Source: a virus
DNA length: 64,000 bases
Reading direction: 5' to 3' (one strand)
IMG/VR virus record: IMGVR_UViG_3300037755_000512
Positions 5,981 to 55,865 of this stretch are shown here, piece after piece; position 1 is the stretch's first letter; each line of letters begins with the position of its first letter. Under the pieces are notes generated by a model. The model did not search any database, was not told where the DNA came from, and worked only from the letters and a program-made list of their open reading frames with translations. A program made the translations under genes and the position numbers.

Positions 5981-6979
5981 ATGAACGTACTGAATAAGCA
6001 CGGTCTGGAGCTGATCCCGACGCATGACATGTCGCGTGAAGAGTGGTTAATGAGAAGAAGGGAGGGTATAGGGGGTTCTGACATGGGCACTATAATGGGT
6101 GCCAACAAAAACTTCTCAAGATTGGAACTTTTCTATCAGAAATGCGGAGCGATCTCTGAGAGCGTTGAACAAAACTCCCCTATGTTCTGGGGGTCAGTGT
6201 TGGAGGAGAATGTCAGGGATATTGCTCAGTATCTCGACATGGAAACCGGTGAATATATCTCCAATTATGAGGCTGGGAATAAATTGAGGAAGCTGTCTGC
6301 ATTTAAGTACATGGTCAAAAATCCTTCCTATCCTTGGTTGATCGCTAACGTGGACGCCTTGGAGGGATTCAAGCCCAGATCATTTAAGGCAGAGGGAATC
6401 GGTGAGATTAAAACCATCTCCCGTCAGTCAGCTGAGATGTGGGAAACCTTCCCAATCTATCACTGGTTTCAGGTTGAAATGTACCACACGGTACTCAAGC
6501 CGATACTTACCACGGATGACAACAAAATATTTTATCTGGAGGACGGCAGGATACTTAGGGGTTTTGGTGTGTCTTGGTCTGAATCAATTTGCGATATCAT
6601 GCTCACTGAGTCACACGACTTTTGGGAGTTGGTTAAAAAAGGAAAGGAGATAGTTAGAAACACGCCAGAAAAAGATAAGCAACTGACCTACCTCTCACAG
6701 ATCGAACCAGAGCCAGAAGGGACACAGGTTTATCTGGACTTCTTGTCTGACCTGTACAAGATGAAGCTCAACTACAAGACAATAAAAGGCAACGAGAAAG
6801 ATAAGGATCACGCGATGACTTACGTCATGCTGGGCAGGGAAATGACCGAGCTTAAAAAACAAAGGGATTTGTCAAGAGTACACATCATTAAACGACTCAA
6901 GGATGAGAGTGCTAACGTCATGAAGTTTGACGACAAAGGAAAAATCACATACAACAGAAAGCTTTATGTTAACATCTAA
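5981..6979 (+). CDS. YqaJ-like viral recombination exonuclease (PD-(D/E)XK)
   Basis: N-terminal EWLMRRREGIGGSDMGTIMGANKNFSRLELFYQK matches the YqaJ/lambda-exonuclease-family signature; sits beside the SSB gene. Confidence 0.7.
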   Translation: MNVLNKHGLELIPTHDMSREEWLMRRREGIGGSDMGTIMGANKNFSRLELFYQKCGAISESVEQNSPMFWGSVLEENVRDIAQYLDMETGEYISNYEAGNKLRKLSAFKYMVKNPSYPWLIANVDALEGFKPRSFKAEGIGEIKTISRQSAEMWETFPIYHWFQVEMYHTVLKPILTTDDNKIFYLEDGRILRGFGVSWSESICDIMLTESHDFWELVKKGKEIVRNTPEKDKQLTYLSQIEPEPEGTQVYLDFLSDLYKMKLNYKTIKGNEKDKDHAMTYVMLGREMTELKKQRDLSRVHIIKRLKDESANVMKFDDKGKITYNRKLYVNI

Positions 6980-7648: not shown

Positions 7649-7667
7649 ACATAAACTAAAATTCCAA

Positions 7668-8375
7668 ATGAGAGGCAATCCAGAACAAAACGACGACGCA
7701 TTATTCTTTCTATCCATAAGAGGGTTGAAACAAGGCGAGACGGTGCACATTACACAGGTACAGACCACAGAAACAAAAGGAGTATACAAAGAGCTGCCTA
7801 ATATCAATCAGGTTTCCGGTGTGCTTGTAAGGACAGAGACAAAAACTAGGGAGTATAAAGACGGAAGTCAGAGTGAAGAGGTCAGGCTGTGGCTAAGGGA
7901 TCCTAACGAAAAAGAGACTTACATCTTAAGCGTCGGCCTAAACATGATTGGCAGGTCAATCATTAACCTACTAGCTGGTGTTGAAGGTAAAATTGGAGAT
8001 GTGATGATTAGGGTGTATAACAATAAAGACACAGGACGTCAGGCTGTGTATATGGAGGTTGATGGCACAAAGTCACAATGGAAATACAACTACAACGAAG
8101 AAACTGTCTTGGAAGACAAAACAGTTCCGCCGCTATCTACTATGGTTACACCGATCAAGAAAAAGAAAAAGGTTGACGGTAAAATGAAAGAGGTCGTTGA
8201 GAACGATTACTTCGAGCTGAATGAATTCATGCTGAAGGTCTTCCGCGAAGAAGTGGCCTATAAAGTAGACAAGGCTGCTGCATACGTGCCGAGTTCGGTG
8301 CCACCAACTACTGCCGTCGCCATAAATGATGGGGCTGAGCCAAATGATGAGTCTGGCGACGATCTGCCATTTTAA
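7668..8375 (+). CDS. ssb: single-stranded DNA-binding protein
   Basis: OB-fold-like core and an acidic C-terminal tail ending ...ESGDDLPF (the canonical SSB D-D-D-I/L-P-F tip); start taken at the internal Met at 7668. Confidence 0.65.
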   Translation: MRGNPEQNDDALFFLSIRGLKQGETVHITQVQTTETKGVYKELPNINQVSGVLVRTETKTREYKDGSQSEEVRLWLRDPNEKETYILSVGLNMIGRSIINLLAGVEGKIGDVMIRVYNNKDTGRQAVYMEVDGTKSQWKYNYNEETVLEDKTVPPLSTMVTPIKKKKKVDGKMKEVVENDYFELNEFMLKVFREEVAYKVDKAAAYVPSSVPPTTAVAINDGAEPNDESGDDLPF

Positions 8376-46146: not shown

Positions 46147-46395
46147 CTAAACTCTGTTCTGGCCCTCGACATTTCTGGCAACCCTGTCAAGGGTTCTTTT
46201 GTTGAGCCACATTAGGGCCTCCTCAAGTTTTGTTATGGCTAAAGAATTTTCACGACAAGAAAATTTTTTATTCAGGTAATTCAGTCTGTCTATCAATATA
46301 GCAATAAATGCCAAAGAGCAATACCAATGAGCTTCTTTGATAAGCATTACGGAAAGGCTGTCTTTAATCCAGACTAAAGACAGGATCAACATCAA
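46147..46395 (-). CDS. hypothetical protein
   Basis: 82-aa ORF. Confidence 0.3.
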   Translation of the reverse strand: MMLILSLVWIKDSLSVMLIKEAHWYCSLAFIAILIDRLNYLNKKFSCRENSLAITKLEEALMWLNKRTLDRVARNVEGQNRV

Positions 46396-47271: not shown

Positions 47272-47702
47272 TTACCGGTGTTTCGAGAGGACTGATGAAA
47301 TAATAAATCACCTCTGTTTCGGTACCTTCTGTTCATGGTGTCATGCACTATCCAATAACCATCTATCTCAGGGTCATTAGCAGTAATTAGCACCGTGTCC
47401 CCATAGACAAATGTTTTGCTACGAATGATATCTTGAGACAAAGCCATCCACCTGATTTCACCAGACTTAAGCCTTGCTAGGTTTATCCTTGCTCCAGAAG
47501 CAGTTATCAACGGCGCGTCATCTGTTTGACTCGGGACAGGGTTGTATACAGTCAGCACGTCCAGCACAATCCTCTCCGGTGTGGCCTCCCTAGAAGAAAA
47601 GCTGATCATTATGAATAGAAATAGCAATATTCTCATGAGCTTGGTTTTAAGTGAAACTTTCTTCATCTTCTTACAAAATCTTTTCTCTCTTTCTATTGTC
47701 AT
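47217..47702 (-). CDS. secreted 3D-domain (MltA-like) peptidoglycan hydrolase
   Basis: N-terminal signal/TM (MKKVSLKTKLMRILLFLFIMISF), then DDAPLITASGARI...GDTVLITANDPEIDGYWIVHDTMNRRYRNRGDLLF with the three conserved Asp of the 3D domain. Confidence 0.5.
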   Translation of the reverse strand: MTIEREKRFCKKMKKVSLKTKLMRILLFLFIMISFSSREATPERIVLDVLTVYNPVPSQTDDAPLITASGARINLARLKSGEIRWMALSQDIIRSKTFVYGDTVLITANDPEIDGYWIVHDTMNRRYRNRGDLLFHQSSRNTGKWMNVTIKKISRTWKRNQ

Positions 47703-48646
47703 ACTAACTCCTTAAGATCTTTGATTCGTTTATACCCAACATCATATCTTTGGTTATGAGCAGCATCCATCAGGTATGTACACACACCACCTTTGTTTAA
47801 TTCGACAAACGTCTCAAACCTGTCGTCAACAAAAATTTCTATTCCGGATGACTTGGCGATATCAAGCTTTGAGTTATTGTGGCCTACGGTATACACGGGC
47901 GCTTTTGGAAAACCATAAATATCCAACCACTCCATAGTTACCTCACTCGGAACGGTTCGGCTGGTTATGTAGCAATGCGGTTCGAAAGGGAGTCCGAGAG
48001 GGTTGACTTTGACCGGAATACTCATCCAAAAATAAATATCATTGGCAACCTCAGAGAACCTCTTGGATAAAAGAGGATCGTTCCAGTAAACAGGACGTGT
48101 TTTGATTTCTGGAAACCTGAGCATCATAGCGCCAATAAAGTCGGCAAGCACTTCATCGACATCCAGTCCGATCTTGCGGCGTTGCAGATATAAATGATTT
48201 CGGTTGTCAAACTCAGGATGGGTTTTTTCAAACTCCATTAACGCCAGCAGACCCCATCCAGCATTTGCCAAGTGTTTTGTTTTTAAGTCAGGATCAAGAT
48301 CTTCTCCGTTTTTCCATGCGGTAATATGGCGCTCAACACTCTCCATGCACTCAAGCCACCCCTGACCCTTGCGCCAGTTGTCTGCGCCAGACTCAATGAC
48401 GGTCAGCCTTTTTTTTGCGACATCATTGATCGGTATATCCTTACCCAGCACTCTGTTTCCTTCCTCGTCCCCGTACACAGTATATTTATGTGCCCCCTCA
48501 GTATAAACATCAACTATTGACTTGATCGGAGACGTTGGAACTAAACCATACCTTGGTTTTCCTGCGTTGTATCTTTTTGCCTGTTCTGCCATAATATTTA
48601 TTCCAAGACTGACATTACCGTATTGAGAACTTTTGGGTCTAACCAT
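47699..48646 (-). CDS. fusion protein: N-terminal nucleotide pyrophosphohydrolase-like region + C-terminal HAD-superfamily 5'-deoxynucleotidase
   Basis: HAD motif I IGLDVDEVLADF (DxDxV) and motif IV FVDDR in the C-terminal half; N-terminal ~130 aa helical (MazG-like?) region. Confidence 0.5.
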   Translation of the reverse strand: MVRPKSSQYGNVSLGINIMAEQAKRYNAGKPRYGLVPTSPIKSIVDVYTEGAHKYTVYGDEEGNRVLGKDIPINDVAKKRLTVIESGADNWRKGQGWLECMESVERHITAWKNGEDLDPDLKTKHLANAGWGLLALMEFEKTHPEFDNRNHLYLQRRKIGLDVDEVLADFIGAMMLRFPEIKTRPVYWNDPLLSKRFSEVANDIYFWMSIPVKVNPLGLPFEPHCYITSRTVPSEVTMEWLDIYGFPKAPVYTVGHNNSKLDIAKSSGIEIFVDDRFETFVELNKGGVCTYLMDAAHNQRYDVGYKRIKDLKELV

Positions 48647-50402: not shown

Positions 50403-50870
50403 TTAAAACCCTTCATTTATCTCTACGCCGGCACGGCGAAACTCGTTCTCGAAGTACTTCCCAAACAGCTGCTCAAAGAGTTTTTTCTTCTGCTCAAGTT
50501 CGTCGGTTTCGGCTCTCTTCTTCTCGATCTCAGAATTGAACCTATCAAGAACTTGTTGCTTGCTGACTGGCAAGTCCCAATCATTCAACGGGCAAATCTC
50601 AGCGGTCTTTGTGGTGCTATTGAAATAAAGGAACTTAATCGTGGCCGAGCTATATTCAGTCTCCAGATAAGCGATTACAATTGTCGGATGCTGTTCGAAC
50701 TGGTCAAACCCAATGATTGTTCCTATGTAAGACTTGAATGTATCACCATAAGATTCCTTAATAAGAACCTTGATGTTGTCGCCAACCTTGTAGTTATCAA
50801 CTACTTTAGCATGCCTGAGATCGACCTCCATCTTGACGCCGTTAATCTCTATGATTTTAGTCTGTACCAT
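50403..50870 (-). CDS. hypothetical protein
   Basis: 155-aa ORF; palindromic GCGTAAATATTACGC box upstream at 50913-50927. Confidence 0.45.
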   Translation of the reverse strand: MVQTKIIEINGVKMEVDLRHAKVVDNYKVGDNIKVLIKESYGDTFKSYIGTIIGFDQFEQHPTIVIAYLETEYSSATIKFLYFNSTTKTAEICPLNDWDLPVSKQQVLDRFNSEIEKKRAETDELEQKKKLFEQLFGKYFENEFRRAGVEINEGF

Positions 50871-51180
50871 GATGCAAATAAAGGAAAAGCTTATATATAA
50901 TACAAGGGTAGTGCGTAAATATTACGCCTACCGAGAGGGTTGAAAAAATAAAACATCCGGAAAATGTTGCATTATAGGATTATACGCAGTATATTTGTGT
51001 TAATATTACATTATGAAAAGAAGTTTACGCCACAGTTATCAGCTACCCTTGTCCTCACCGACACAGGAGGCCTACGCTATGGAGTAAATTCAAAATACTA
51101 GTTTGACAAAACCCATTACTCCCCCGCTTAGGCCTTGACGAAAGTTGAGGCCTTTGTTTTTTGTGTGGGTTAAATTAAAT

Positions 51181-51257
51181 CGCGGAGCGATCCACAAAGA
51201 GAGAGGTTACCCGCCTTGGAAGCGGGGTTATTGCAAGTTCGAGTCTTGCCTTCGCGA
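51181..51257 (+). tRNA. tRNA-Pro (anticodon TGG), irregular D-arm
   Basis: Hand-folded: acceptor cgcggag/cttcgcg, anticodon arm cccgc-cttggaa-gcggg, T-arm gcaag-ttcgagt-cttgc; D-arm lacks the usual GG and pairs poorly. Confidence 0.4.
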
Positions 51258-51327
51258 CGGAACGTATTTCTGGCTCGAGTCCAGACGAAGGTCGGTCAGG
51301 GATTTCTGTAGTGTAATCGGCAACACG

Positions 51328-51412
51328 CGTTCATATCCTGATCCGCCAGAGCTGGGACTGTCTGTAAAACAGTTGCCTTCTGGCTGAGTGGGTTCGAATC
51401 CCACGTGATGGA
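51328..51412 (+). tRNA. tRNA-Tyr-like (anticodon GTA), long variable arm; 5' end uncertain
   Basis: Anticodon arm actgt-ctgtaaa-acagt at 51357-51373, T-arm gtggg-ttcgaat-cccac at 51386-51404; could not pair a clean acceptor stem. Confidence 0.3.
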
Positions 51413-51419
51413 CTAATAT

Positions 51420-51492
51420 TTCTGGTTAGTATAACGGCAAGTACGCCTGACTTTGACTCAGGTATCTGTCAGTTCGACTCCGACCTTTCACC
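51420..51492 (+). tRNA. tRNA-Gln-like (anticodon TTG), acceptor stem apparently unpaired (possible pseudo-tRNA)
   Basis: D-arm gtat-aacggcaa-gtac, anticodon arm cctga-ctttgac-tcagg, T-arm gtcag-ttcgact-ccgac; the 5'/3' ends do not form a 7-bp stem. Confidence 0.3.
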
Positions 51493-51555
51493 CTTAATGG
51501 AAAATATTATTTACAATAAACGGCTGTTTTTGTAAAGAATATTTGACAACACTAT

Positions 51556-51600
51556 CCTCCTGTAGTTTAACTGGTCGGGGTTCGAATCCCCGCAGGAGGC
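51556..51600 (+). other. 45-nt tRNA-like minihelix (acceptor stem + consensus T-arm only)
   Basis: cctcctg ... cgggg-ttcgaat-ccccg caggagg c: perfect 7-bp acceptor-like stem plus canonical GGTTCGAATCC T-loop, with no D or anticodon arm. Confidence 0.3.
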
Positions 51601-51621
51601 CTGAGAGGATTGCAAAAAAGA

Positions 51622-51710
51622 GCCCCAGTGATGGAATTGGCGAGACATGTCAGATTTAGACTCTGATGCGAAATAACAGTAGCGTGTAGGTTCGGGTCCT
51701 ACTTGGGGTA
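51622..51710 (+). tRNA. tRNA-Leu (anticodon TAG), type II
   Basis: Acceptor gccccag/ttggggt (2 G-U), D-stem atg/cat, anticodon arm tcaga-tttagac-tctga, long variable arm, T-arm gtagg-ttcgggt-cctac. Confidence 0.55.
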
Positions 51711-51715
51711 CTTAT

Positions 51716-51805
51716 AGGCTCATGGTGAAAACGGTAAACACGTCAGGCTTAAACCCTGATGCGAACTAAAAAATAAGCTTGCCGGTTCGAGTCCGGCTGG
51801 GCCTA
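51716..51805 (+). tRNA. tRNA-Leu (anticodon TAA), type II
   Basis: Acceptor aggctca/tgggcct, D-stem gtg/cac with GG loop, anticodon arm tcagg-cttaaac-cctga, long variable arm, T-arm gccgg-ttcgagt-ccggc. Confidence 0.55.
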
Positions 51806-51941
51806 CTATATGGAGAGTAAACCTGCTAGGGTAGGGGCGCTCTGCTAAGGCGCACGTGCGGTAATACGCATGTGGATCATGACCACTGCTCTCCGCGTTC
51901 ATTACAGTAAACGAACGTTTACTAATTTTGTTTAATGTTAC

Positions 51942-52024
51942 GGAGGTCGTCCGAATGAACGAGGACACTATTTTGAAAACAGCTGGGCTTAACGGCTTTG
52001 GGGGTTCGATTCCCTTGGCCTCCG
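51942..52024 (+). tRNA. tRNA-like gene, identity unresolved
   Basis: Acceptor ggaggtc/ggcctcc and T-loop ttcgatt present; anticodon arm could not be resolved by hand. Confidence 0.3.
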
Positions 52025-52159
52025 CTGACCAAGGGATATATTAAAGATGTTAAGAGAAGGGATGGAGCTCTACCCCCCACCCTTCCATTCATTGTATGCT
52101 TTTAAATATATAACCGCAAAAACACTAAAAAATATATGCTTTTACGTCGGTCTCCCCAG

Positions 52160-52226
52160 AGTTCATGGTGAGATTCGAACTCACGCTTCGAGTTTTGCAG
52201 ACCCGATTTTGCACCGAGCCATGAAC
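52160..52226 (-). tRNA. tRNA-Cys-like (anticodon GCA) with a shortened D region
   Basis: Minus strand: acceptor gttcatg/catgaac, anticodon arm cgggt-ctgcaaa-actcg, T-arm gtgag-ttcgaat-ctcac; only ~14 nt where a D-arm should be. Confidence 0.25.
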
Positions 52227-52354
52227 TTAAAAAAACCCCACAAGGTGCGCTTGGATCAGAGGCGTATGGGGTGTGTTGGGCGACAGGAGAGGGTTGAAGC
52301 AAAAGACTCGTTCTTGGGGCGCTGTTCTTATGGGTGAGCGTGGCGAGTACTTCG

Positions 52355-52426
52355 TGCAAAGGGCTGGAGTCGAACCAACGGCCACCGGCTTTTCAGACCG
52401 GCACTCTACCACTGAGTTACCGATGC
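52355..52426 (-). tRNA. tRNA-Phe (anticodon GAA); acceptor stem has 2 central mismatches
   Basis: Minus strand: gcatcgg-ta-actcagtggtagagt..., anticodon arm ccggt-ctgaaaa-gccgg, T-arm gttgg-ttcgact-ccagc, 3' acceptor cctttgc. Confidence 0.45.
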
Positions 52427-52435
52427 AATTTAGTA

Positions 52436-52522
52436 GCGGAGGTGGGAATCGAACCCAGTAGAAGTGCTTATGAGACACCCAAGCTCACCAGAGCTGCCTA
52501 CAACCGCAATTTTGTAGTGATG
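52436..52522 (-). tRNA. tRNA-Met/Ile-like (anticodon CAT); acceptor pairing not found
   Basis: Minus strand: D-stem aggc/gctt, anticodon arm ggtgt-ctcataa-gcact, T-loop ttcgatt; possible pseudo-tRNA. Confidence 0.25.
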
Positions 52523-52595
52523 ATAGGTTACGATCCTACTCTCTCGAACGTATCAGATTCGCGCTTTCCCGATTAAGCTACATCACTATTTTTAG

Positions 52596-52670
52596 TTCCG
52601 CCGGTGGGAATCGAACTCACTTTTTGTCTGGTTAAAAGCCAGAAGCAATACCAAATTTTGCTACGACGGA
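52596..52670 (-). tRNA. tRNA-Lys (anticodon TTT)
   Basis: Minus strand: acceptor tccgtcg/cggcgga, anticodon stem ctgg/ccag with loop cttttaa, T-arm gtgag-ttcgatt-cccac. Confidence 0.5.
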
Positions 52671-52851
52671 GTAAACCTTGTCGTAGTCCTTTTTATTTGT
52701 TTTCATATTAGCTTTTGTTTGCTGTTACTATTTTTAACCTTTAATGTAACAATCTTGTTAGTTACAACTTTGTTAGTTGGCCCTGCGGGTACCGATCCCA
52801 CGCCCTGTTCATTATGAGTGAACTGCTCCTCCATTAAGCTAAGGGCCGATG

Positions 52852-52923
52852 AACTCCTGTCGGGATTCGAACCCGAACTGATGAGGTAGAAACACATAGT
52901 TCTTCCGATTAAACTACAGGAGT
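52852..52923 (-). tRNA. tRNA-Arg-like (anticodon TCT)
   Basis: Minus strand: perfect acceptor actcctg/caggagt, D-stem agtt/aact, anticodon loop tttctac, T-arm tcggg-ttcgaat-cccga. Confidence 0.4.
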
Positions 52924-52957
52924 TTATTAGAATAATCTATGTCTTCTTCTTTCCATG

Positions 52958-53030
52958 AGGTCCCTCAGAGAATCGAACTCTGTATCTTCTGGTTACAAAT
53001 CAGTGGCATCGCCAGCAATGCTTAGGAACC
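52958..53030 (-). tRNA. tRNA-like gene, anticodon unresolved
   Basis: Minus strand: acceptor ggttcct/agggacc, D-stem gcat/atgc, T-arm cagag-ttcgatt-ctctg; anticodon arm irregular (ctg-atttgtaac-cag). Confidence 0.3.
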
Positions 53031-53055
53031 TTTTTATTTCGCATTTCGCGAATTG

Positions 53056-53127
53056 CACGGGTGGTAGGACTCGAACCTACAGTCACGGTTTTGGAGACCG
53101 TTGGTTTACCGATTAACCGACACCGGT
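53056..53127 (-). tRNA. tRNA-Trp (anticodon CCA)
   Basis: Minus strand: D-stem ggtt/aacc, anticodon arm acggt-ctccaaa-accgt, T-arm gtagg-ttcgagt-cctac; one C-C mismatch in the acceptor stem. Confidence 0.5.
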
Positions 53128-53161
53128 GTTTTGAGAGGTTGTAAATGCAATCCTCTCGGTG

Positions 53162-53233
53162 AGGGAAGGGAATGATTCGAACATTCGTAAGGCACATTAA
53201 CAGTGTGCTGCCTGACCACTAGGCTACCAACCC
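53162..53233 (-). tRNA. tRNA-Asn (anticodon GTT); acceptor has 2 U-U mismatches
   Basis: Minus strand: gggttgg-ta-gcct-agtggtc-aggc, anticodon arm gcaca-ctgttaa-tgtgc, T-arm gaatg-ttcgaat-cattc. Confidence 0.45.
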
Positions 53234-53242
53234 TTTTTATTG

Positions 53243-53315
53243 CAGTACTGACGGGAGTCGAACCCGCTCCGTTCTTCGTGACAGGAAGACATCTTATCCA
53301 TTTGACCTCAGCACT
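53243..53315 (-). tRNA. tRNA-Asp (anticodon GTC)
   Basis: Minus strand: acceptor agtgctg/cagtact, anticodon arm tcttc-ctgtcac-gaaga, T-arm gcggg-ttcgact-cccgt. Confidence 0.5.
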
Positions 53316-53425
53316 GTGATAGTCCGACAGGGTCGAGCGGTTGACCTGACGCTTTTGATCCGCAACTCCCAGTTGAATGTACGCTTTACTGGGCACGTCA
53401 TTTCGACCCTGTCGGAACTTTGTTG

Positions 53426-53500
53426 TGGAACCATAGGGGATCGAACCCTACTCGCGGATCTTGCAAGGATCTGCCGCCAAGCCGAGGAACATGTGGCCCC
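53426..53500 (-). tRNA. tRNA-Ala (anticodon TGC)
   Basis: Minus strand: acceptor ggggcca/tggttcc (2 G-U), anticodon loop cttgcaa, T-arm taggg-ttcgatc-cccta. Confidence 0.45.
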
Positions 53501-53673
53501 AAATTAAAAAGCTCCAGATTTTACTTTGGAGCTTTTTTGTCGACATCTATTCACCTTACTAAATGAGTTGCTCCAATGGAATACCTCCCTTGCCCCAATT
53601 AATTGTGGCGCCGTTCATTCTCGCGATATTAAAGCAACTCATTTTCATTTCATGTAGTTTTATACCAAAAATA

Positions 53674-53720
53674 TATACATCATATCTGTCAGGGGACTTG
53701 TGAAGTCCCCTGACAGATAT
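53674..53720. promoter_or_regulatory. perfect 19-bp inverted repeat with 9-bp loop (bidirectional terminator or recombination/regulatory site)
   Basis: catcatatctgtcagggga-cttgtgaag-tcccctgacagatatgatg. Confidence 0.6.
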
Positions 53721-53807
53721 GATGTCATTGCCTTTTGATAGCTTTCAAACTCATCGTTAGAAGCGTAATTCAATTGGATAGAGCGTCGTTGGTGGTAACA
53801 CGGTTAG

Positions 53808-53882
53808 TACTGCTGACGAGACTCGAACTCGCTAGTACACGCCTTGAAAGGGCGCGGCCTCGACCACTTCGGCTTCAGCAGC
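53808..53882 (-). tRNA. tRNA-Glu (anticodon TTC)
   Basis: Minus strand: acceptor gctgctg/cagcagt, anticodon arm gcgcc-ctttcaa-ggcgt, T-arm gcgag-ttcgagt-ctcgt. Confidence 0.45.
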
Positions 53883-54095
53883 GTAACGCTCCTCAGCTTC
53901 AGTTTGTTCGAATGAGATCAGCAGTTCTTTTTTCATCATGGCGTAAATATAACGCAATAAATTTGATAATGTAACATTTCCGGATGTTTTATTTTCTAAA
54001 TGTCTTCCCGCACCGGCGACACTTGTATCTTATTGTGAATCTGCCGGTGTGAATCATTTCGAGTTTGTGATCGAAAAGAAAACACAGTATCTGTT

Positions 54096-54470
54096 TCATT
54101 TTGCCAGAAATATAAATAGCCTTTCCCCAAGGTACCCCGCCAGATAAGCTTGGGGCTCGTCGTTTTCTATGTCATGAGCGATCCCTCTTGTTATACATAG
54201 GTAATTAACCGCGTGAATAATTTCATGGAAGACAACATTAACGCTAAGCTCGTCCTCTTGAAAAACCATACATAAAACCCCCTTATTGTCTACATATGTC
54301 ATGGCCGCAGCATCCTCGGCTTCCAGACCAAGCGCGTCGACTATATCCACCACCACAACCTGCCGCACCTCCATGTTGTAAATAGGGATTACGTAGGTTG
54401 TATCATTCAGAATTTGCGCACTTCCGGATATCGACACTAGCAGAAAGAAAGTCATAAGAAGTCTTTTCAT
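54096..54470 (-). CDS. small secreted HExxH protein (putative minimal zinc metallopeptidase)
   Basis: Signal peptide MKRLLMTFFLLVSISGSAQ; single HEIIHAV motif with downstream acidic HDIENDE; start trimmed to the signal-peptide Met so that it is coupled by a 4-bp overlap to the upstream SPFH gene. Confidence 0.4.
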   Translation of the reverse strand: MKRLLMTFFLLVSISGSAQILNDTTYVIPIYNMEVRQVVVVDIVDALGLEAEDAAAMTYVDNKGVLCMVFQEDELSVNVVFHEIIHAVNYLCITRGIAHDIENDEPQAYLAGYLGERLFIFLAK

Positions 54471-55325: not shown

Positions 55326-55865
55326 ATGTTGGCAATAGAACTGAAATCTGACGGCTTGATAATGAAGGCCTATAATTATGCGAGAAAGTGTCATGACGGC
55401 ACTAATCAGGAGTATGACGGCAATTCGTACATGGTCCATGTGATAGGTGCATTTGGGTATGCAGCGAAATATATAGACCTGATATCTAAGCCGGATCGGG
55501 CCACGGTCCTTGCAGCAGTCTTTGCCCATGATGTTATTGAAGACACGCGTCAAACATACGGCGACGTGAAGAAAGAGCTAGGGGAGAGAGTTGCAGAAAT
55601 TGTATATGCTGTAACTAATGAGAAGGGAAAAAACAGGAAAGAGAGAGCTAATGATGTTTATTATTCAAGAATAAGGCGGAAAAAAAACGCCGACTTCGTG
55701 AAGTTGTGTGACAGGCTGTCTAACGTAAGGTATTCGGTCGATCACGGGGCGAGTCAAGCTAAAATGTACAGAAATGAGAATAAGCTATTTGTGTACGAAG
55801 TAACAAATCGCCACGGCCATCTCCAGCCAATGATTAGTGAATTATATTACCTGTTAAGCGAATAA
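55326..55865 (+). CDS. HD-domain (RelA/SpoT-like) small alarmone hydrolase
   Basis: H...HDVIEDT metal-binding signature (VFAHDVIEDTRQTYGD) and spacing typical of (p)ppGpp hydrolase HD domains; 179 aa with no synthetase domain. Confidence 0.65.
   Translation: MLAIELKSDGLIMKAYNYARKCHDGTNQEYDGNSYMVHVIGAFGYAAKYIDLISKPDRATVLAAVFAHDVIEDTRQTYGDVKKELGERVAEIVYAVTNEKGKNRKERANDVYYSRIRRKKNADFVKLCDRLSNVRYSVDHGASQAKMYRNENKLFVYEVTNRHGHLQPMISELYYLLSE

Follow-up and report, generated by a model that had tools for sequence, protein, structure and literature searches.

A phage tRNA gene array with candidate attenuator leaders that list the tRNA species encoded downstream

We describe a cluster of transfer RNA (tRNA) genes at positions 51181-53882 of a 64,000-nucleotide (nt) stretch of viral DNA, IMG/VR record IMGVR_UViG_3300037755_000512; the whole stretch is referred to below as the window. 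The role of tRNA genes in phages has been debated for some 50 years, with codon compensation, survival of host shut-off and escape from tRNA-targeting immunity all put forward (PMC10264068). The cluster consists of two blocks of tRNA genes, A and B, and upstream of each lies a short open reading frame (ORF) whose codons match the tRNA species of that block, a layout suggestive of leaders that would let the phage run its tRNA genes on demand.

The tRNA gene cluster and its relatives

The window is part of a phage, as the initial annotation had supposed in taking the region for a phage tRNA array: genes for a large terminase, a portal, a capsid protein and a primase-helicase were found in it, together with long tail genes. 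The nearest GenBank relatives are Flavobacterium and Cellulophaga phages, with a terminase identity of only 29%, and no near-identical DNA or nucleotide match to the window was present among 50,697 GenBank phage records. The same phage recurs in 10 metagenome contigs, the longest of about 67.8 kilobases (kb), which are 100% identical across the locus with a single mismatch in one contig; these are one strain, so that identity across the locus is uninformative and strain variation offers no covariation analysis.

Twenty-one tRNA or tRNA-derived units lie in these 2.7 kb, eight on the plus strand and 13 on the minus strand. With default settings ARAGORN reports 14 tRNAs, all of them here and none elsewhere in the 64 kb, and the Rfam tRNA model at gathering score gives 13 matches, again all in the same 2.7 kb. 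Rfam adds to the default ARAGORN set a Gln-like local match (51427-51484) and a Cys-like unit (52160-52226, 31.8 bits), and misses tRNA-Pro (51181) and the CAU tRNA at 52433-52508; tRNA-Glu is missed only by the whole-window Rfam gathering search and scores 44.8 bits in a regional search. Relaxed ARAGORN settings add Tyr-GUA, Ser-GCU, Ser-UGA, Ala-UGC and Cys-GCA, and 12 units score 39-61 bits as cloverleaf tRNAs with Rfam. The dense bidirectional cluster proposed by the initial annotation is thus borne out by both programs, as are the clustering on both strands and all 15 of the anticodons it named; its count of seven plus-strand and eleven minus-strand units was too low, and it had omitted Ile-GAU, Thr-UGU, the second CAU unit, Ser-GCU and Ser-UGA. 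The units are dense, and compensatory changes in Pro, Ala and Ser-GCU indicate helices kept by evolution, unlike in Tyr, Gln and the unit we call X; the locus is a genuine phage tRNA gene cluster, partly decayed. The units, together with the debris between Pro and Tyr, are, from left to right:

51181-51257, plus strand: tRNA-Pro(UGG); ARAGORN; odd D arm
51259-51327, plus strand: tRNA-fragment debris between Pro and Tyr; alignment of ATTTCTG copies
51328-51413, plus strand: tRNA-Tyr(GUA), probable pseudogene; relaxed ARAGORN only
51420-51493, plus strand: Gln::His fusion (UUG), probable pseudogene; Rfam local match to model positions 8-63, 35.2 bits
51556-51601, plus strand: unit X, Arg tRNA remnant; minihelix-type Rfam match, acceptor stem and T arm only
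51622-51710, plus strand: tRNA-Leu(UAG); ARAGORN; Rfam 42.4 bits
51716-51805, plus strand: tRNA-Leu(UAA); ARAGORN; Rfam 56.7 bits
51812-51896, plus strand: tRNA-Ser(GCU); relaxed ARAGORN; non-canonical T loop
51941-52025, plus strand: tRNA-Ser(UGA)-like unit, uncertain; ARAGORN -ps80; tRNA-Sec model 26.8 bits
52160-52226, minus strand: tRNA-Cys(GCA)-like unit; Rfam 31.8 bits; relaxed ARAGORN
52355-52426, minus strand: tRNA-Phe(GAA) with U4.U69 and C5.U68 mismatches; ARAGORN; Rfam 60.6 bits
52433-52508, minus strand: CAU tRNA no. 1, doubtful; ARAGORN; no Rfam match
52515-52587, minus strand: tRNA-Ile(GAU); ARAGORN; Rfam 56.1 bits
52596-52670, minus strand: tRNA-Lys(UUU); ARAGORN; Rfam 54.3 bits
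52777-52848, minus strand: CAU tRNA no. 2 (Met or Ile2); ARAGORN; Rfam 49.2 bits
52852-52923, minus strand: tRNA-Arg(UCU); ARAGORN; Rfam 58.7 bits
52958-53030, minus strand: tRNA-Thr(UGU); ARAGORN; Rfam 39.6 bits
53056-53127, minus strand: tRNA-Trp(CCA); ARAGORN; Rfam 57.3 bits
53162-53233, minus strand: tRNA-Asn(GUU) with a tandem U.U mismatch at 4:69 and 5:68; ARAGORN; Rfam 54.5 bits
53243-53315, minus strand: tRNA-Asp(GUC); ARAGORN; Rfam 49.6 bits
53425-53500, minus strand: tRNA-Ala(UGC); relaxed ARAGORN; G3:U70 and A73
53808-53882, minus strand: tRNA-Glu(UUC); ARAGORN; Rfam 44.8 bits

The closest syntenic relative, contig L030 (terminase 68% identical), has no tRNAs between its Band_7-like and GroES-like genes. 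At that site the array is present in contigs L033, L037 and L038 (terminase 52-55% identical), and likewise in two 120-kb IMG/VR contigs, L125 and L133. Eighty further IMG/VR terminase relatives, at 47% identity or below, carry at most one tRNA-Arg each, without a leader, and nothing useful came from querying IMG/VR with a second flanking protein, a 28-mer of the Pro tRNA, a 20-mer of the Ala tRNA or a GroES-like alignment. Gene order is kept within both blocks: block A reads Pro Tyr Gln His Arg-ACG Leu-UAG (Leu-CAA) Leu-UAA Ser Ser, followed by Glu, and block B reads Ala (Asp) Asn Trp Thr Arg-UCU CAU Lys Ile CAU Phe Val Gly Cys, which gives an ancestral set for all 20 amino acids. The phages differ in orientation: L037 and L038 have the two blocks directed away from the GroES-like gene, L033 has them in the opposite direction, and an inverted block B in the window makes blocks A and B converge.

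Leader reading frames and alternative RNA pairings

In all six contigs each tRNA block is preceded by a promoter-like site, a short ORF (24-29 codons in the window) that starts a few nt past the promoter-like box and lies upstream of a terminator hairpin, and an intrinsic terminator that abuts the first tRNA; the position of the terminator directly before the first tRNA is conserved in all relatives. This leader and terminator ahead of each block, the most informative feature of the locus, had gone unnoticed in the initial annotation. The features of the window are:

50940-50963 and 53977-54000: inverted repeat of 24 nt, 92% complementary, flanking the whole cluster (inverted-repeat search)
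50967-50997, plus strand: promoter-like site P_A (TTG, 20 nt, TAtaTTTG), 15 nt upstream of the start of leader A
51013-51087, plus strand: leader A ORF, peptide MKRSLRHSYQLPLSSPTQEAYAME
51067-51077, plus strand: region 2 of attenuator A (GAGGCCUACGC), which can pair with the terminator 5' arm to give an antiterminator
51126-51163, plus strand: terminator A, with stem, GAAA loop and T run, 17 nt before tRNA-Pro
53501-53537, minus strand: terminator B (5' arm 53527-53537, 3' arm 53506-53516), ending directly at the first base of tRNA-Ala
53559-53648, minus strand: leader B ORF, peptide MKMSCFNIARMNGATINWGKGGIPLEQLI
53628-53644 and 53561-53577, minus strand: regions 1 and 2 of attenuator B, which pair with each other; UGGAGC at 53570-53575 can pair with the terminator 5' arm
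53832-53939, minus strand: Glu-rich leader ORF (MMKKELLISFEQTEAEERYA...), starting at the block-B promoter and reading into the 5' half of tRNA-Glu
53944-54000, minus strand: promoter-like site P_B, with a TAtaTTTA box at 53944-53951 and the right repeat arm at 53977-54000

The corresponding peptides of the relatives are:

Leader A: L033 MNNKLQHSYRLLQSPRLGG...; L037 MKQQSLHSYRSLQLPSSGSGGISM; L038 MNQQLHSYRHSQLPLSGVRG...; L133 MKQYLRPSQQHSLPSYLGGEG...
Leader B: L033 MKRNWFNTITMFATRDCGKVGILCWGQFER; L037 MQNWTNIIGTWNFTAMRDCGKVAALYWDQG; L038 MQNWTIIMTTNFIARDCGKVGSHCVGT; L133 and L125 MKRNWFNIIFTMFATRDCGKVGVYCWSQ

The 24-nt inverted repeat forms the common upstream part of two inward-facing promoter-like regions (AAAATAAAACATCCGGAAA.TGTT.CATTAT), with a small CCGG palindrome, and could be an operator common to both operons or a trace of the inversion of block B. 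A TAnnTTTG box, which we take to be the -7 element of the Bacteroidota promoter type (-33/-7), also stands 4-7 nt before the leader ATG in L033, L037, L038 and L133; from these boxes before the leader ORFs a Bacteroidota host is probable, and we infer promoter function for P_A and P_B.

The leader ORFs are rich in the amino acids served by the tRNAs of their own block. Residues 3-16 of leader A of the window, a run of 14 residues, are all drawn from Pro, Tyr, Gln, His, Arg, Leu and Ser, the block-A set, which together makes up 32% of the phage proteome; runs of this kind span 13-15 residues across the A leaders, every one of which contains all seven amino acids. The B leaders have runs of 19-22 residues (19 in the window) from the 13 block-B amino acids, and contain all 13, including the rare Cys, Trp and Met, with the exception of the window (11 of 13). 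When random peptides of the same length and proteome composition were simulated for the eight leaders of the window, L033, L037 and L038 (200,000 trials), the observed values were reached in none or one of the trials per leader, and in 60 of the 200,000 for leader B of the window.

The match extends to codons. All five A leaders hold codons for the nine block-A tRNA species, including both Leu and both Ser boxes, and four of the five B leaders cover all 14 block-B species, AUA included, leader B of the window covering 11 of the 14. Arginine is divided between the two families: inside every block-A run it is encoded by CGN, as for the Arg-ACG of block A, the AGA codons in the A leaders of the window, L033 and L038 standing at or beyond the edge of the run, and all Arg codons of the B leaders are AGA or AGG, as for the Arg-UCU of block B. 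Leader A and leader B are two unrelated families, and residue order varies among leaders. Leader A of L133 has the same composition in a different order, which suggests selection on codon content and not on a particular peptide; the B leaders of L125 and L133 differ by two substitutions, both synonymous.

Neither a homologue of leader B nor a homologous cassette was found in GenBank phages. Cyanobacterial matches to its RDCGKV pattern were rejected as relatives, being unrelated and without tRNAs nearby; the tiny ORF that recurs among them (MMFLGRNRDCGKVY[NH]C..., in loci L141, L151, L254 and L216 of Anabaena, Cuspidothrix and related cyanobacteria) is a chance pattern match, and no tRNA genes were found in its 8-kb loci.

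The 3' ends of the leader ORFs can pair with the terminators that follow. We replaced full-length folding by a co-transcriptional truncation, in which each leader was folded up to the terminator loop, before the 3' arm is made. In all eight leaders so folded, the terminator 5' arm pairs with a segment of 6-16 nt near the 3' end of the ORF, and with a ribosome footprint over the stop codon the 5' arm is free or keeps only 2-3 nearby pairs. The L133 and L125 leaders behave in the same way, so that 11 of 11 leaders show the pairing lost with a ribosome at the stop. Antiterminator duplex energies beat those of shuffled ORFs in every leader (p 0.0015-0.032 in the first eight, which Fisher's method combines to 4e-10, and p 0.0015-0.026 in the remaining three); for region 2 of attenuator A the duplex energy is -16.4 against -9.8 in shuffles (p=0.0085). 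The pairing segments vary by phage and track each terminator, being AGGCCUACGC, GGAGGGGUU, GUGGAGGUAUUU, GUUAGAGGCU... in A leaders and UGGAGC, GUUGGGGCC..., UUGGGACC and GUUGGGACCU in B leaders. When the complete leader is folded free, region 1, the checklist portion of the ORF, is paired with region 2; in leader B of the window this pairing extends over 17 nt at 88% complementarity. Thermodynamics thus predicts an antiterminator (2:3) that excludes the terminator and that a ribosome at the ORF end would block.

A third ORF, rich in Glu codons, is associated with tRNA-Glu. Its motif is ..TEAEE[I/R]YA and it overlaps the first 12-50 nt of the tRNA, an arrangement also present in L037, L038 and L133. 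In the four phages so folded the free minimum-energy fold sequesters one acceptor strand of tRNA-Glu, and the cloverleaf is the minimum-energy fold only with the leader blocked; in L037, L038 and L133 it is the GAG GAG codons that pair with the 5' acceptor strand. We tentatively regard this leader as a translation-gated switch of tRNA-Glu folding and processing, in which the stalling of a ribosome at the Glu codons would release the tRNA for both.

Between tRNA-Glu and leader B there is a perfect 23-base-pair hairpin (53677-53725), followed by a T-rich run on the minus strand. It lies in a phage-specific insertion of about 150 nt where L037, L038 and L133 have only some 15-25 nt, and it is a possible terminator of the Glu transcript; leader B would then require a promoter of its own.

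The proposed attenuation and competing explanations

We consider it probable that the array is under ribosome-mediated attenuation and that each leader serves as a checklist of the tRNAs encoded downstream. The cluster would comprise two convergent operons. Operon A, on the plus strand, would run from its promoter through leader A and the terminator to Pro, the Tyr, Gln::His and Arg remnants, Leu-UAG, Leu-UAA, Ser-GCU and Ser-UGA; operon B, on the minus strand, would run from its promoter through the Glu-rich ORF over tRNA-Glu, leader B and the terminator to Ala, Asp, Asn, Trp, Thr, Arg-UCU, CAU, Lys, Ile, CAU, Phe and perhaps Cys. Each leader would be a trp/his-type attenuator with about one or two codons per downstream tRNA species in place of a run of a single codon. 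With the listed aminoacyl-tRNAs plentiful, the ribosome would clear the checklist, and region 2 would then either be masked by a ribosome at the stop codon or pair again with region 1; the terminator would form and the tRNA genes would be off. Were any listed tRNA scarce, the ribosome would stall in the checklist, region 2 would pair with the terminator 5' arm and RNA polymerase would read into the array; the phage tRNAs so made would relieve the stall and close a negative feedback loop. Likely triggers would be cleavage of host tRNAs by defence nucleases, host shut-off, or a codon demand of the phage (late genes) set against the host tRNA pool.

Several observations weigh against this proposal. 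Full-length equilibrium folds keep the terminator in seven of the eight leaders even with a stalled ribosome; such folding is uninformative as a test of antitermination, since the terminator dominates, and we rejected it for that purpose, but it follows that the switch must be kinetic and act during transcription, as in the classical trp-type attenuators. When no ribosome is placed on them, the truncated leaders often fold with region 2 bound to region 3 in preference to region 1, so the off-state would depend on ribosome position or on kinetics. Leader B of the window lacks Asp, Val and AUA codons, yet has Gly codons in a phage without a Gly tRNA. Leader A of the window still lists His, CGN-Arg, Tyr and Gln, species whose phage tRNAs are lost or damaged, which would fit a recent erosion of block A. 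At the Glu leader, CUGCUGAUC of the window pairs with the 3' acceptor strand of the tRNA, unlike in the relatives. The six arrays are homologous and not independent samples, the model presupposes coupled transcription and translation in the host, and all of its functional steps (leader translation, termination, read-through on stalling and the biological trigger) are read from sequence.

The most serious competing explanation is an ordinary constitutive or temporally controlled array, in which the upstream ORFs and hairpins are incidental and transcription either reads through into the tRNAs or starts at promoters that escaped recognition. Clusters of tRNA genes are frequent in phages and have mostly been described without dedicated regulation (PMC6409571, PMC10264068), the terminator is mostly kept in the equilibrium folds described above, and leader translation is a presumption. 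We nevertheless find this explanation unlikely: leader composition fits the downstream tRNA set far above chance in two unrelated leader families and across six contigs, Arg codons are split into CGN and AGR between the A and B leaders, and the 3' ends of the ORFs co-vary with the terminator 5' arms. Moreover, the distance from the terminator T run to the first tRNA is 0-25 nt, which leaves no room for a promoter.

A second alternative starts from the irregular units, which the initial annotation had offered as adaptations that alter recognition by nucleases or synthetases; they would be variants or decoys that evade or absorb anticodon nucleases, or change synthetase recognition. It is true that phage tRNAs escape tRNA-targeting defences, mainly by anticodon-loop changes (PMC10264068, PMC11464382, PMC11555353), and that the irregular units are 100% conserved in the 10 metagenome contigs. 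Those contigs, however, are one strain, and the orthologues of Tyr, Gln and X in L033, L037 and L038 are canonical, scoring 47-63 bits against 35 bits (local only) or nothing in the window. Their defects can each be traced to a single event, namely an 8-nt deletion in a D loop, the joining of a Gln 5' part to a His 3' strand and a 30-nt internal deletion, and we hold an adaptive origin to be quite improbable.

The Tyr unit is about 88% identical to Tyr of L037 over the tRNA body, minus 8 nt (AGAGTTGG), a deletion that leaves a 2-nt D 'loop' without G18-G19; it also has two acceptor mismatches. The Gln unit has Gln-type D and anticodon (UUG) arms and a T arm, and no acceptor helix is possible: the lack of an acceptor stem, which the initial annotation had seen, is reflected in the Rfam alignment, confined to model positions 8-63. 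At its 3' end stands CCTTTCACCC, a perfect match to the 3' acceptor strand of His in L038, and His, which directly follows Gln in every relative, is missing from the window; a Gln-His deletion fusion would explain why all arms are present save the acceptor helix. To our knowledge, a tRNA without an acceptor helix can be neither processed by RNase P nor charged. Unit X matches the Arg-UCU of the window at both ends (a relationship also detected as an inverted repeat), lacks about 30 nt comprising the D-stem 3' strand, anticodon arm and variable loop, and occupies the slot of Arg-ACG in the relatives. All three have thus lost a helix or loop needed for processing or charging while their orthologues are intact, and they are best read as deletion or fusion pseudogenes specific to this phage, that is, as decay: within the window phage, His would be lost and Tyr, Gln and Arg-ACG damaged by deletion. 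Introns and permuted or split tRNAs were considered for Tyr and Gln and rejected; the intron mode of ARAGORN gave one spurious call, and deletion or fusion fits better. In the phage, AGR accounts for 65% of Arg codons, and His and Cys are the rarest residues apart from Trp, a usage consistent with relaxed selection for part of the genes lost here.

Next to these units, the debris at 51259-51327 repeats ATTTCTG, with which the Gln unit begins, twice more, and in the alignment of the three copies a D arm follows one of these repeats; it appears as a second Gln-like 5' half, ATTTCTG-TAGTGTAATCGGCAACAC, and its likeness to other tRNAs is not above chance. In L033 the array holds two inserted ORFs, at 6556-6915 (the Pro/Tyr gap) and 7661-8113 (between the blocks), which are HNH-endonuclease-like by eye, and homing endonucleases could have driven array rearrangements and the deletions in the window.

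Other irregular units appear to be maintained. Pro has an odd D arm, with C8, three pairs in the D stem and a D loop of 11 nt without GG; the design recurs in L033, and three double compensatory changes separate the two. Ala shares with L033 an unpaired-looking D region (ATGTTCC..GGCT.GGCG) and shows eight compensatory pairs, with G3:U70 invariant in four phages, and Ser-GCU has nine compensatory pairs with L033 and L038 despite its non-canonical T loop. Since related phages share these designs, with base changes that compensate one another, the three are probably functional tRNAs of a divergent lineage; with their helices kept in this way, they look like ordinary tRNAs.

The remaining structural claims of the initial annotation fared unevenly. 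The two central acceptor mismatches of Phe and Asn (4:69 and 5:68) are visible in the Rfam alignments, and the unit sequence of Cys indeed has about 14 nt in place of a D arm. The 'Met-like' unit at 52433-52508 (CAU no. 1), said to lack acceptor pairing, has four of seven acceptor pairs. A tRNA 5'-half look-alike at 53762-53784 was not supported: against the tRNAs of the six related arrays it scores 20, with a shuffled mean of 19.8, and it has no tRNA-family Rfam match at E<=10. Three units are of doubtful status. Cys has perfect acceptor, anticodon and T arms around its 14 nt, and could be a pseudogene or a D-arm-poor tRNA; the D arm is normal in L033, the only comparable orthologue, and the truncation occurs in no relative. 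The L038 orthologue of CAU no. 1 scores 56.4 bits, and Ser-UGA shows an A.C mismatch within its anticodon stem and lacks GG in the D loop. A hairpin with a U run (52235-52271, minus strand) stands directly 5' of Cys, with a weak Rfam match to abiF-RNA (25.9 bits, below gathering); no leader ORF precedes it, so the D-arm-poor Cys gene may lie past the end of operon B. Deletion and fusion pseudogenes such as Tyr, Gln::His and X show how fast such arrays erode, and are a warning that low-scoring tRNA-like units should not be taken as adaptations.

The last alternative, that the leader RNA senses tRNAs directly in the manner of a T-box and without a ribosome, or that the leader peptides are functional micro-proteins, is the least probable we considered, for although T-box leader RNAs can read tRNAs and switch terminators and the peptides are partly conserved (HSYR, RDCGKV), Rfam gives no leader or T-box family in the window at gathering score, nor in 50900-54200 with the limit relaxed to E<=10, the codons stand in one unbroken frame with an ATG near the promoter box and a stop codon, close relatives differ only synonymously, and the shuffled order with kept composition in L133 argues against a specific peptide fold.

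Returning to ribosome-mediated attenuation, and speaking of phages more generally, we lean, somewhat less firmly than for the array itself, towards the view that some phages run their own tRNA arrays on demand through checklist leaders, together with stall-released tRNA-Glu, and that these would constitute a new class of sensor of tRNA availability, plausibly directed against tRNA cleavage.

Some further features of the locus may be recorded here. An insertion of 109 nt (53316-53424) with a terminal stem of about 16 base pairs (GTTCCGACAGGGTCGA...TCGACCCTGTCGGAC) separates tRNA-Ala from tRNA-Asp, a gap of only 4-9 nt in L033 and L133; a small RNA and a miniature mobile element are both possibilities. 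The tRNA-Leu(UAG) genes of L033 (7219-7294), L037 (2678-2752) and L038 (4000-4074) are 75-76 nt long without a long variable arm, which is unusual for a bacterial-type tRNA-Leu, and the copy in the window has an A-rich variable region of 18 nt. In contig L034 (14791-17868) the terminase gene is split by an intein/homing-endonuclease domain (Hom_end_hint, LAGLIDADG), with a product of 1025 amino acids.

Three neighbouring genes carry domains tied to counter-defence or nucleotide signalling, namely HD_4 (55326-55865, plus strand), an Acb2/Tad1-type hairpin (46147-46347, minus strand) and a dGTP diphosphohydrolase N-terminal domain (47699-48646, minus strand). The HD_4 domain is that of a RelA/SpoT-type hydrolase and resembles small alarmone hydrolases; such a hydrolase beside a tRNA array recalls the enzymes that reverse the pyrophosphorylation of tRNA 3' ends by toxic RelA/SpoT homologues. 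The flanking gene for 155 amino acids at 50403-50870 (minus strand, phrog_15098) was tried as a synteny anchor and discarded, as its homologues, 60-76% identical, occur in many unrelated phages without synteny and without an array; it looks like a mobile, promiscuous moron and not a component of the array.

Implications and comparison with known systems

If the proposed attenuation is true, a built-in sensor that switches the array on at shortage would make the purpose of phage tRNAs directly testable. The leader sequence would name the tRNAs that matter, the switch could be moved onto a reporter, and depletion of a single tRNA (e.g., by anticodon nucleases) should open it. The leaders would also be usable as compact in-vivo reporters of decoding capacity, and such sensors may prove more widespread once they are looked for.

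Among phage tRNA clusters, those of T4, T5 and Sf14 (with 26 tRNAs) resemble the present one as dense arrays that cover most amino acids in a lytic-type phage, with the likely role of sustaining translation when host tRNAs are limiting or attacked (PMC10264068, PMC11464382, PMC11555353, PMC12482277, PMC6409571). The array of the window has no sequence homologue in the GenBank phage records searched, and PA5oct differs in having its tRNAs interspersed with protein genes, without this layout. No description of leader-peptide or attenuator control of tRNA arrays was found in the full-text literature searched. A functional likeness is seen in the long tRNA arrays of cyanobacteria, where an accessory tRNA operon is silent normally and comes on when translation is impaired (PMC8421152); that paper mentions no attenuator, leader or terminator, and the organism and sequences are other.

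The T-box riboswitches likewise use a leader RNA to couple tRNA status to the choice between terminator and antiterminator. A T-box, however, binds one uncharged tRNA directly and regulates synthetase or amino-acid genes, whereas the leaders of the window have an ORF, many codons and no T-box sequence.

The closest parallel in mechanism is with the attenuators of amino-acid operons (trpL, hisL, leuL, thrL, ilvL and pheL, and pheM for pheST), in which a short ORF of regulatory codons is followed by an intrinsic terminator, the pairings 1:2, 2:3 and 3:4 are exclusive, and the read-out is the speed of the ribosome as set by charged tRNA (PMC1183508, PMC3082878). Those attenuators rely on a run of one or two codons and control biosynthetic enzymes or synthetases; here the list would extend to nine or 14 tRNA species, the regulated genes would be the tRNAs themselves, and the system is encoded by a phage. 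The mechanism itself would be trp/his-type attenuation, and its tRNA-gene target and multi-species checklist are in no described system that we found. If this proves true, classical attenuation would be extended to a case in which the product is the tRNA itself and one leader monitors many codons in parallel.

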